The position numbers and the translations under genes were made by a program. A stretch of 7,995 nucleotides of DNA from a virus (lineage: Duplodnaviria > Heunggongvirae > Uroviricota > Caudoviricetes): the IMG/VR virus record IMGVR_UViG_2740892422_000008; one strand, 5' to 3'. This document shows, piece by piece, positions 1-7,411 of this stretch; within the stretch, counting starts at the first letter, position 1; each line of letters begins with the position of its first letter. Below the pieces are notes generated by a model. That model searched no databases, was not told where the DNA came from, and saw only the letters and a list, made by a program, of their open reading frames with translations.

Positions 1-1236
1 CTACGATAACCGCGCATTCAACATAGCTACCTGTTCGTCGTTCATGTCATCAATCCACATACCGTAAATTTCATACACCATCTGCGCAGTTTCATGCCCC
101 ATCTGGCTGGCTATAAATGCCGGGTTCGCTCCTGCCGTCAACAGCCAGCAGGCAAAAGTATGTCGCGTATGGTACGGATTACGGCGGCGAATACCAGCAC
201 GTTTTACTGCTGCATTCCATCTCGCACCCAAACTGCTTACCGAGTAATAAGGTTTCTGTTTTCCGTTACACATCCTGGGCATGAAAACAAAATGCAGTTT
301 TTGCTTTTCAGTTCTGCCGTACTCCCGATGATAAAAAGTGATTTCGCTTTTGCGATGATGCCCGGTCAGTTTGTATTGCTCCTTCAGTGCTTCAAGAGCT
401 GGCTGTAGTAGTGTTACCGTCCGGATCCCCGCATTTGTTTTTGGGGGACCGAACATATCAAGTATCGTCAGGTTTCTTCTGACATTCACAATTCCCTTCT
501 CGAAATCCACATCCTCCCACGCCAGAGCTGCCAGTTCCCCGTGACGAAGCCCGGAGTAAACGGCAAATTTCCACAAGTTCTGGCTCTGTCCTTTTTCACT
601 TTCCATTAATGCATTGAATTCTGTTTTAGATAACGGGTCAGGCTTTATTCTGTTTCGCTGTAATTTTTTTACTCCTTCAAATGGTTTGGTTGATATAAAT
701 CCCGACTGATACGCAAAACGTAACAACGAACAGAGCAGGGCGATATAGTTATCAACTGTGCGCACGGTTCTTCCTTTTTTGTTGGTTCTTGGATTATCCA
801 GGTAAAGCGTTTCTCCATGCAGCAGTTCATTCCGGTAGTTTAAGATATCGCTATAACGAATATGCGATATCGGGGTACTCTCACAAATTATTATCCTGAG
901 TGTTTTTAATTGTGATTTCGTTTTCTTCATTGTGTTTGTTGTTAACTCTGTCTCTTTAATTTTTGTCCAGATATCACAAAGCTCCCCGAACGTTTTTATG
1001 ACCCTCGTTGTCACCATTTTTGCCCCAGTGCTGGACTGGGGAAAACGTCTTAAATACTCAAATTCACCGGAATTGATTTCATGAACTATCAACGCTCTTA
1101 AATTCCCGGCTTTTTTAATGTTACTGTTAGTAACCTCCCAGCCTTTCAATGTTTCCCGACATCGTTTTCCTCGAAACATGAACCAGATGCGAATGTATTT
1201 ACCTCGAATCTCGACACCTGTTGGTAATTTAGACAT
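1..1236 (-). CDS. intR: Tyrosine-type site-specific integrase, Rac prophage IntR-like (411 aa, complete; stop codon at 1-3)
   Basis: Full-length minus-strand ORF with ATG at 1234-1236. The translation matches Rac IntR as I recall it (MSKLPTGVEIRG...). C-terminal catalytic signature of tyrosine recombinases is visible (H-x-x-R in NPYHTRHTF, tyrosine in the VYEIYGMW region). Start sits 1 nt from the xis stop, the usual xis-int arrangement. Confidence 0.92.
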   Translation of the reverse strand: MSKLPTGVEIRGKYIRIWFMFRGKRCRETLKGWEVTNSNIKKAGNLRALIVHEINSGEFEYLRRFPQSSTGAKMVTTRVIKTFGELCDIWTKIKETELTTNTMKKTKSQLKTLRIIICESTPISHIRYSDILNYRNELLHGETLYLDNPRTNKKGRTVRTVDNYIALLCSLLRFAYQSGFISTKPFEGVKKLQRNRIKPDPLSKTEFNALMESEKGQSQNLWKFAVYSGLRHGELAALAWEDVDFEKGIVNVRRNLTILDMFGPPKTNAGIRTVTLLQPALEALKEQYKLTGHHRKSEITFYHREYGRTEKQKLHFVFMPRMCNGKQKPYYSVSSLGARWNAAVKRAGIRRRNPYHTRHTFACWLLTAGANPAFIASQMGHETAQMVYEIYGMWIDDMNDEQVAMLNARLS

Positions 1237-1237
1237 A

Positions 1238-1453
1238 TCATGAGTCTTTGATAAACTGATTTATCTTTGGATAGTTGTACCAGATAATCCCTCGCTTACT
1301 GTCTGGTTTCCCTAAAGGAGATACTCGTTTGAAGTGGAAGCCTTCCACCCAACAGTTCTGGCGGTATGCTTCAATTTGTCTGGCCCCCAGACCAGTGCGA
1401 AGCATCAGGCCGTATTCAACCATCCACTCTTCATTAAAGATTACTTGTGCCAT
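1238..1453 (-). CDS. xisR: Excisionase-like protein (Rac XisR/YdaQ-like), 71 aa
   Basis: ORF immediately upstream of and co-oriented with int. I chose the ATG at 1451-1453 ([15 protein letters not shown]...) because it is preceded by GAGGTG at about 6 nt spacing; the track start at 1477 is a TTG extension. Sequence matches my recollection of K-12 YdaQ. Confidence 0.8.
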
Positions 1454-1504
1454 CGCATCACCTCTGGCAGGCGCCAATGTTAGACTGAAATTGACGCCCG
1501 ATGT

Positions 1505-1520
1505 TGATTATTAATAATCA
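1505..1520. promoter_or_regulatory. Perfect 16-bp AT-rich palindrome TGATTATTAATAATCA in the ydaC-xis spacer (candidate dimeric regulator binding site)
   Basis: Exact dyad symmetry read directly from the sequence, centred 52-67 bp upstream of the xis start codon. Confidence 0.3.
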
Positions 1521-1552
1521 GCTATGAAGTTTTAATTTGAATACAATGCAAT

Positions 1553-1753
1553 TCACGACGACTGAAGTTTCTCGCAATTAAAATTTATCAGTTTTACTTT
1601 CTGCTCTCTGGAAATGCCTGCTTCTTTTTTACCTGAGAGCATTTTTTCGCATTCTGATTTGGTTAATTTTGTTTTTGAGTACCTTGTCCAGTTAGTAGGA
1701 GTGCCACCTTCCTTTTCAATAGTGGCGGTAATTTTATACATGAACACCTCCAT
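1553..1753 (-). CDS. ydaC: YdaC-like small prophage protein of unknown function
   Basis: Minus-strand ORF (…MEVFMYKITATIEKEGGTPTNWTRYSKTKLTKSECEK…) resembling Rac YdaC from memory. Start is ambiguous: ATG at 1753 (66 aa), ATG at 1741 (62 aa, preceded by GGAGG at 5 nt spacing), or ATG at 1813 (86 aa, overlaps ralR by 80 nt). The 3' end of ralR overlaps the 5' region. Confidence 0.65.
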   Translation of the reverse strand: MEVFMYKITATIEKEGGTPTNWTRYSKTKLTKSECEKMLSGKKEAGISREQKVKLINFNCEKLQSS

Positions 1754-1928
1754 TATTATTTCCAGTGGTTCGTTTATTCCATCGTTCGAGTGCTTCTTTT
1801 TCACTTCCACCATAGCCGGTTCGGGATTCGCATCCGTTACACTTCGCGCGGTAATATCCTGAAATGGCTTTCACCGTTACTGATGGACAACCACAAAAAG
1901 GGCATGGTTTGACTTTTTCATACCGCAT
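1734..1928 (-). CDS. ralR: RalR (Lar) restriction-alleviation protein / type I toxin DNase, 64 aa
   Basis: MRYEKVKPCPFCGCPSVTVKAISGYYRAKCNGCESRTGYGGSEKEALERWNKRTTGNNNGGVHV matches my recollection of K-12 RalR. Two CxxC pairs (CPFCGC … CNGC) form a zinc-ribbon-like motif. The track start at 1943 adds 5 aa; the K-12-like start is the ATG at 1928. Confidence 0.85.
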   Translation of the reverse strand: MRYEKVKPCPFCGCPSVTVKAISGYYRAKCNGCESRTGYGGSEKEALERWNKRTTGNNNGGVHV

Positions 1929-6970: not shown

Positions 6971-7141
6971 AATTATCTCCATTTTTACAAATGAACTTTG
7001 TTGATGCGGTGCCTGGTGCCTCCAGGTGACTGCAACCAGTTAACAATTACAGTCGGCTTTCCCACCCAAACCAATAAGGACTAACATGACTTTTAACTGT
7101 GCCACGTGCGCTTAGCCGCATTCACCGCATCACAAAACTCA

Positions 7142-7193
7142 CTTTAAAAAGGGCGGACATCAGCCGAACTTCAAGAAAAAAACTGATGCCGCC
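7142..7193 (-). terminator. Candidate intrinsic terminator on the minus strand, upstream of kilR
   Basis: Inverted repeat GGCGG(a)CATCAG (7152-7163) / CTGATGCCGCC (7183-7193): 11 bp with one bulged base and a 19-nt loop. On the minus-strand transcript it is followed directly by CUUUUUAAAGU (plus 7141-7151). No U-tract follows it on the plus strand. Confidence 0.35.
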
Positions 7194-7411
7194 AGGACTA
7201 CACACAGCAATGTCGTTATTTACAACCGGAGGCGCACTCCCACCATTTAAATTTAACAGACAAGACCGACTCTTTATGGATATCGGAAATGCGCCTTCGT
7301 GTTGTGCCCGGTTTTATTTCACCACCTCCGGGCTTCGGTGGTCTCGGCTATACCCCTACAGCGAGAGCTTGTGTTAACATTTCAATACCCTTACAGTTGA
7401 GAGTTATTGAT

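Follow-up and report, generated by a model that had tools for sequence, protein, structure and literature searches.

What does an exact 16-bp palindrome do in the short gap upstream of the excisionase gene of a Rac-type prophage? The question arises in the 7,995-nucleotide stretch of Caudoviricetes DNA analysed here (the window), for which a first-pass annotation had proposed that the palindrome is an operator bound by a dimeric regulator controlling the expression of xis and int. The answer that we favour, with a probability of roughly 0.6, is that the dyad is an unreported operator for the prophage regulator YdaT at a pI-like promoter of xisR-intR. The operator is possibly shared with the neighbouring antitoxin gene ralA.

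The palindrome and its neighbourhood

The DNA of the window belongs to a Rac-type prophage whose genes run here on the minus strand. The features on either side of the palindrome are the following.

1-1236, minus strand: intR, a tyrosine integrase gene (411 aa)
1238-1453, minus strand: xisR, the excisionase gene (71 aa; Pfam DUF1233, PF06806), with its ATG at 1453-1451
1459-1464, minus strand: GAGGTG, the Shine-Dalgarno sequence of xisR, as read from the sequence
1504-1521, no strand: 18-bp YdaT-box-like site, TTGATT and AATCAG around ATTAAT (TTGATTATTAATAATCAG), defined by motif scans and conservation
1505-1520, no strand: perfect 16-bp palindrome TGATTATTAATAATCA, core TGATT-N6-AATCA, with an identical K-12 copy
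1553-1741, minus strand: DUF1187/rcbA(ydaC)-like ORF, antisense to RalA
1557-1735, plus strand: RalA sRNA, the antitoxin of RalR (Rfam RF02694, 212.7 bits against a gathering score of 170)
1734-1928, minus strand: ralR, a type I toxin gene

Genes for a RecT-like protein and RecE follow farther along, beyond ralR, and the window stops short of the immunity region. In strain RM10740, which has a single mismatch to the window over 400 aligned bases, racR-ydaS-ydaT lie 8 kb from the dyad. The 5' end of RalA has been placed by primer extension at a G that matches window position 1557 (Guo et al. 2014), and ralA starts 37 bp to the right of the dyad, a neighbour that the first-pass annotation had missed. 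With ralA running to the right on the plus strand and xisR lying to the left on the minus strand, the dyad sits between two divergent transcription units.

The rcbA/ydaC frame is not the same as in K-12, the ORF ending at 1553 here and at the equivalent of 1532 in K-12 rcbA, and near this end the window and K-12 are separated by two substitutions, at 1555 and 1559. It has been argued that ydaC is not protein-coding (Guo et al. 2014). Elsewhere in the window, between a kilR-like gene and sieB, two Rfam matches on the minus strand fall below threshold, namely DicF at 7151-7206 (39.1 bits against a gathering score of 48) and STnc100 at 6997-7135 (34.5 bits against 47).

The palindrome itself was described correctly: TGATTATTAATAATCA at 1505-1520 reads the same on both strands, and no other perfect 16-bp palindrome exists in the window. 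The gap between xisR and the ydaC-like ORF measures 99 bp for a claimed 100, and the '~60 bp' given for the distance to the xis start is a fair figure, the centre lying 59.5 bp and the near edge 52 bp from the ATG. E. coli K-12 MG1655 carries the same 16 bp (NC_000913.3, 1413504-1413519), and 1911 of 5426 complete E. coli genomes contain the region. The accompanying argument that such a palindrome is unlikely by chance is weaker than it was made to appear. The expected number is 0.002 in the 99-bp spacer at the composition of the window, and 0.11-0.12 over the window as a whole (P ~0.11). Comparison of sequences indicates that the dyad is real through its conservation, not through its improbability.

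Conservation and promoter geometry

XisR-family loci were collected without reference to the dyad, from one genome per species and from viral contigs, and the 158 loci with an intact xis gene reduced to 48 distinct upstream sequences. The motif TGAT-N8-(A/T)TCA, with at most one mismatch and at 56-73 bp from the xis ATG, occurs in 47 of these 48, against ~0.9 expected by chance; in L020, which alone lacks it, other DNA has taken the place of the upstream sequence. Conservation across Rac-like prophages had been named as a check by the first-pass annotation. The flanks of the dyad in Citrobacter, Pseudescherichia, Leclercia, Enterobacter and Klebsiella cannot be aligned with those of E. coli. 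Another gene stands upstream in those five genera, with neither ralR nor ralA present, and it ends with its stop codon inside the dyad; since the dyad is kept there, the site belongs with xis and not with ralA.

What is conserved is a pair of half-sites of 5-6 bp around a free 6-bp spacer, and not the perfect 16-bp palindrome as such. The spacer occurs as ATTAAT, ATAAAT, ATGAAT, ATCCCT, CTTGAA, CCTGAG and TTGAAT with the half-sites kept, and central symmetry is broken in L004, L053, L095, L160 and L146-L152, so that exact palindromy over 16 bp would be incidental. Positions 5 and 12 of the dyad co-vary in such a way that they can still pair (T/A in 43 loci, A/T in 30 and C/G in 3, with one exception), which is the signature of a site for a symmetric dimer. 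Within the limits of sequence evidence, this co-change and the shared architecture in 47/48 upstream sequences support the proposal of an operator for a dimeric regulator.

The spacing between the half-sites also bears on whether the element could be read by a global regulator of the host, be it as a Fur-like 7-1-7 arrangement, an FNR-like TTGAT/ATCAA pair or a site for a nucleoid protein. TGAT and ATCA are 8 bp apart in every variant, compared with 7 for Fur and 4 for FNR, and the half-site classes differ among prophages of related hosts, where they follow the YdaT type of the phage. These observations outweigh, in our view, the best Fur 19-mer match of 13/19, the identity of TTGAT and ATCAA with FNR half-sites, the classic FNR/CRP position of -41.5 and the published involvement of RpoS and H-NS in Rac excision, and we regard a host regulator as very unlikely. 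A Fur box in particular was rejected because all homologous sites have a spacing one base too long and because the resemblance is not conserved. The score of 13/19 here falls to 9-11/19 in most relatives, which is the shuffled background (mean 9.3), and the decision of the first-pass annotation not to call the site a Fur box was sound. An FNR site, TTGAT-N4-ATCAA, was likewise set aside, the spacing being N8 in all 47 variants.

It could also be asked whether the dyad has a function at all. A chance palindrome in AT-rich DNA would need none, and besides the window-wide expectation given above, this reading can draw on the similarity of the region within E. coli, where 80 loci with identical XisR show only 3 dyad variants (two central and one in a half-site), too little variation for a test of constraint. 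The dyad would be equally functionless as a passive leftover of the junction at which mosaic modules recombined, a reading consistent with a prophage next to yebY (L004), with an unrelated integrase and excisionase, in which homology to the window starts exactly at the left edge of the box (window 1504; L004 12001), so that the operator coincides with a mosaic module boundary. Neither idea fits well with the retention of the dyad in 47/48 distinct lineages with unalignable flanks, with the symmetric co-change at positions 5/12 or with the fixed distance to a -10-like hexamer, and a functionless dyad strikes us as extremely improbable.

The architecture is not universal among YdaT-type phages, since the cultured phages HK225, HK639 and mEp237, with a YdaT-like cII and phi80-type or other int-xis genes, have no such dyad upstream of int/xis. 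In ZF40, the region upstream of int/xis holds an inverted repeat that is only loosely similar, plus a hairpin. This Pectobacterium phage (L110) also carries a perfect TGATTATCAAGAATCA ~30 bp upstream of its YdaT-like cII, and the half-site motif therefore reaches beyond Enterobacteriaceae.

On the xisR side of the dyad a TAnnnT hexamer stands at a fixed offset in 47/47 distinct sequences. It reads TATACT in 23, TATAGT in 7, TATAAT in 2 and TATATT, TACTGT or TAAAGT in one each, the E. coli-type hexamer being TAACAT or TAATAT. A start site set 7 nt past the hexamer puts the dyad centre at -41.5 in 34 sequences, at -42.5 in 13 and at -40.5 in none. The offset holds steady at ATG distances from 56 to 73 bp, and also in L146-L152, which have no hairpin. 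The elements predicted in the window are the following.

1468-1500, minus strand: hairpin with arms at 1500-1490 and 1478-1468, its 11-nt loop holding most of the -10 hexamer
1470-1471, minus strand: predicted transcription start of xisR-intR, placing the dyad centre (1512.5) at -42.5 or -41.5
1477-1482, minus strand: TAACAT, predicted -10 of xisR-intR (fixed offset, 47/47)
1542-1547, plus strand: TACAAT (TATAAT in L004), predicted -10 of ralA, with the dyad centre at -41.5 from a predicted start at 1554

The -35 position of the predicted xisR-intR promoter reads AACATC in the window, which leaves no usable -35, and with the dyad centre at -41.5/-42.5 from the predicted start the predicted layout is that of a class II promoter dependent on an activator. 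Published K-12 start-site tables were consulted (Cappable-seq, SMRT-Cappable-seq and Adams 2021), and none of them covers 1413.4-1413.6 kb. To the right of the dyad, the predicted ralA start lies 3 nt from the published 5' end of RalA. As the dyad is near -41.5 for both predicted promoters, the box would be placed symmetrically between those of xisR and ralA in E. coli Rac-type elements.

A different promoter arrangement has also been weighed, in which back-to-back AATAAT hexamers resembling -10 elements would make the dyad a symmetric divergent promoter for xisR and ralA without any dedicated regulator. The promoter scan did return TTGACG-16-AATAAT on the plus strand (10/12) and TTAAAA-17-AATAAT on the minus strand (9/12), both with the -10 inside the dyad, and the published RpoS-dependence of the stationary-phase induction of xisR (Liu et al. 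2015) implies that some promoter must lie upstream. These hexamers and their -35 partners are not conserved, however, most relatives having TGATATCGAAATATCA or TGATTCTTGAAAATCA with TGAT and ATCA kept. Furthermore, the 5' end of RalA is at 1557 and not at ~1525, and it is a different, well-conserved TAnnnT hexamer that stands at a fixed offset downstream of the dyad. An unregulated divergent promoter is therefore quite unlikely in our judgement.

The hexamer is found in the loop of a GC-rich hairpin of 8-15 bp in 43/47 sequences. The arms of this hairpin are wholly different between lineages and yet complementary, with G.U pairs on the xis-sense strand, and it occurs at the same position in L013-L025, L111-L169, L004 and L107. 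Among E. coli loci, the reference G.U pair at 1499-1469 is replaced by A-U in 11 and by G-C in 6. RNAalifold, applied from the dyad to the ATG, returned no consensus structure because the hairpins are one column out of register between lineages, and per-sequence folds were used instead. No U-tract follows the hairpin. A terminator was considered and rejected, since the dyad is AT-rich, the adjoining hairpin has no T-run and a scan of 1200-2100 returned 0 terminator-like sites. Fold-back inhibition, with the xis Shine-Dalgarno sequence hidden in read-through RNA, was also rejected, as the unpaired probabilities of that sequence are not consistently different from those in promoter-initiated RNA.

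YdaT boxes and half-site classes

The immunity regions of Rac and CP-933P encode a protein for which very similar sites have been described. YdaT is a tetramer of helix-turn-helix domains and is viewed as a functional analogue of lambda CII (PMC9986795). The Rac protein was footprinted on ATGATTCATGAAAATCAA, which overlaps the ydaT start codon and was named the YdaT-box, ATGATT-N6-AATCAA (Wons et al. 2025, PMC11879457). That of CP-933P was footprinted on the OM operator, a perfect TTGATT-N6-AATCAA (Prolic-Kalinsek et al. 2023, PMC9986795), and each of the two proteins binds the site of the other (PMC11879457). The published YdaT-bound regions are two in Rac and one at the host gene rcsA.

Positions 1504-1521 of the window match TTGATT-N6-AATCAA at 11/12 positions, with the right spacer and an exact core, and the footprinted Rac box scores the same. 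A search of 24 kb, the whole of K-12 Rac, for the 18-mer with at most one mismatch found the dyad and the footprinted box only (0.15 expected). The core TGATT-N6-AATCA has 3 copies in K-12 Rac against 0.10 expected, a number reached in 0/100 shuffles; these are the dyad, the footprinted box and a box inside ydaW. The same three boxes are present in RM10740 (0.05 expected), and L004 has the three as well.

The exact box inside ydaW/DUF1627 lies at 11620-11635 in L003 (K-12, genome positions 1423119-1423134), at 21479-21494 in L172 and at 21112-21127 in L004. Its half-sites are constant in the E. coli loci, where the spacer differs from one to the next (TGATT[TAG]A[CT]GCGAATCA). On sequence grounds this box may be a further site for YdaT.

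Of 80 E. coli-type loci, 63 have a YdaT homolog within 10 kb; those loci without ydaT that were checked are deletion derivatives of the immunity region and are uninformative. In L041, L055, L064, L084 and L092, racR-ydaS-ydaT are deleted, ydaU/V/W are fused beside kilR or recE, and the dyad is unchanged. Where loci are compared, the half-site class tracks the YdaT subfamily of the same locus, a linkage that comparison cannot separate from that with the remaining immunity-region genes. The classes and their resident proteins are as follows.

TGATT..AATCA: K-12-like, CP-933P-like, L019-like and L021-like YdaT
TGATA[TA]..[AT]TATCA: long (179-190 aa) YdaT, L013-like and L015-like
TGATCA..TGTTCA: L010-like YdaT

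A dyad of the same class is also found at the 5' end of each ydaT homolog, over the ATG in short YdaTs and at +49 in long ones. In L015, the xis box and the ydaT box are identical 16-mers 8.3 kb apart, and in L010 one asymmetric variant occurs at both places (TGATCACCATTGTTCA and TGATCATTGATGTTCA). Matching of the xis dyad to the ydaT 5' region averaged 12.05/16 within a locus and 10.92 across loci, and 11.95 and 10.77 in a reduced set of 19 representatives, the own-locus mean being reached in 0/20000 permutations in either case, statistics that ignore the relatedness of the loci. Among xis genes 76-100% identical to that of L019, the dyad class switches with the YdaT type. L004 and phage Tritos keep the dyad with unrelated xis and int genes, which makes Xis and Int unlikely binders. 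Arginine R57, which is required for DNA binding by YdaT, is invariant across all 7 subfamilies, and most of the YdaT representatives scanned match Pfam YdaT_toxin. As a separate observation, the coding-region box at +49 in the long YdaTs (L013, L014, L015, L017, L018, L021, L022 and L023) encodes a conserved [VLM]-I-[SN]-[KR]-x-Q.

That the dyad class co-varies with the whole immunity region, and not demonstrably with YdaT alone, makes another immunity-region protein the most serious alternative, because comparison alone cannot break the linkage. The dyad would then be an operator for the Cro-like YdaS or a further immunity-linked regulator, with the same promoter geometry, and it is YdaS, not YdaT, that induces Rac excision. 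The match of 11/12 to a footprinted YdaT box, with the correct N6 spacer, argues otherwise, as does the matching second box at the 5' end of ydaT, exactly the position of the YdaT footprint. The operators of CP-933P YdaS and PaaR2 are palindromes of the GTTTAGTAA type. We accordingly rate another regulator of this kind as unlikely. A RacR operator was rejected, its consensus, (T/A)TAGGC-n3-GCCTA(T/A), being unlike the dyad.

A candidate YdaT operator beside known systems

Under the preferred reading, the dyad would be bound by YdaT, a tetrameric helix-turn-helix regulator from the ydaS-ydaT operon ~8 kb away, with each YdaT dimer reading the TTGATT and AATCAA half-sites over a non-specific 6-bp spacer. 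From a position ~42 bp upstream of the predicted xisR-intR start, YdaT would bring about class II-like activation, and the promoter would be the counterpart of the CII-dependent pI; activation is more likely than repression. The element would in this way tie the expression of the recombination genes to the lysis-lysogeny regulator. One bound YdaT might also act on both xisR-intR and ralA, the dyad being at -41.5 from the predicted ralA promoter. Four parts of this reading are inferred, namely that YdaT binds the dyad, that the hexamer serves as a -10, where transcription starts and whether YdaT activates or represses. The earlier suggestion of an operator controlling xis-int is upheld in this form, and is extended in two respects: the site also lies upstream of ralA, and its 11/12 match names YdaT as a specific candidate regulator.

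Published work on Rac bears on this reading in both directions. Depletion of RacR raises xisR and intR mRNA ~100-fold under conditions in which YdaS and YdaT are expressed, which we count in its favour, although the rise can be explained by read-through from the early-left operon. Counting against it, overexpression of YdaT left Rac excision unchanged and that of YdaS changed it (Gucwa et al. 2024, Fig. 8). The known YdaT-activated promoters have another geometry, and the E. coli -10 (TAACAT) is poor. It also speaks against a YdaT-dependent pI that a promoter upstream of xis would yield Xis and Int together.

A more elaborate version of the proposal, which we hold to be doubtful, is that the dyad is the pI-equivalent of YdaT-type lambdoid prophages, with one tetramer on one dyad serving two divergent class II-type promoters, and with the -10 of the xis promoter placed in a covarying hairpin that only read-through RNA from the early-left operon can form. 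If this dual control were true, promoter-initiated and read-through xis-int mRNAs would meet different fates.

YdaT has only recently been established as the counterpart of CII in a large group of lambdoid prophages that includes Rac, CP-933P and many enterobacterial relatives. It is known to target the immunity region and, in the host, rcsA; a link to the integration and excision genes has not been described, and the published descriptions of YdaT that were examined make no mention of a YdaT site near xis or int. If the proposal is true, a YdaT site at the xisR-intR promoter supplies that link and widens the YdaT regulon, and the RalR/RalA toxin-antitoxin pair could be tied to the same switch. 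The dyad would also offer a concrete, mutable target for studies of how RacR, YdaS and YdaT wire Rac excision, and since the site is identical in E. coli K-12, it can be tested with existing strains and plasmids.

The closest known systems are the YdaT-boxes of Rac (PMC11879457) and of OM in CP-933P (PMC9986795), which share with the dyad the same inverted repeat, the type of prophage and a spacer that is not conserved. Unlike these sites, the dyad is 7-8 kb away from the immunity region, and it lies upstream of ralA and xisR-intR instead of at the 5' end of ydaT. Its centre lies ~42 bp from a predicted start, whereas the Rac box is ~190 bp upstream of PracR4 and OM is downstream of PRE933P.

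The Fur box (GATAATGATAATCATTATC; 7-1-7) has AT-richness and the TGAT/ATCA ends in common with the dyad. A closer parallel in layout is found in the class II promoters of CRP and FNR, which, like the arrangement predicted at the dyad, have a site centred at -41.5 or -42.5, a good -10 and no -35. They differ in half-site spacing (4 bp for FNR and 6 bp for CRP, compared with 8 bp here), in the presumed binder, which for the dyad is a POU-like helix-turn-helix tetramer, and in that the start at the dyad is a predicted one.

Lambda CII binds direct repeats, TTGC-N6-TTGC, that flank the -35, and its promoter pI, being situated within xis, yields Int alone. The dyad, by contrast, is an inverted repeat upstream of xis, from which Xis and Int would be made together, and no CII-type repeat TTGC-N6-TTGC is present in 1454-1552. 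YdaT and lambda CII are themselves analogues and not clear homologues. The likeness to lambda pI lies in the arrangement: in both cases a lysogeny regulator that is encoded beside cro would have its site at a recombination-gene promoter without a usable -35.
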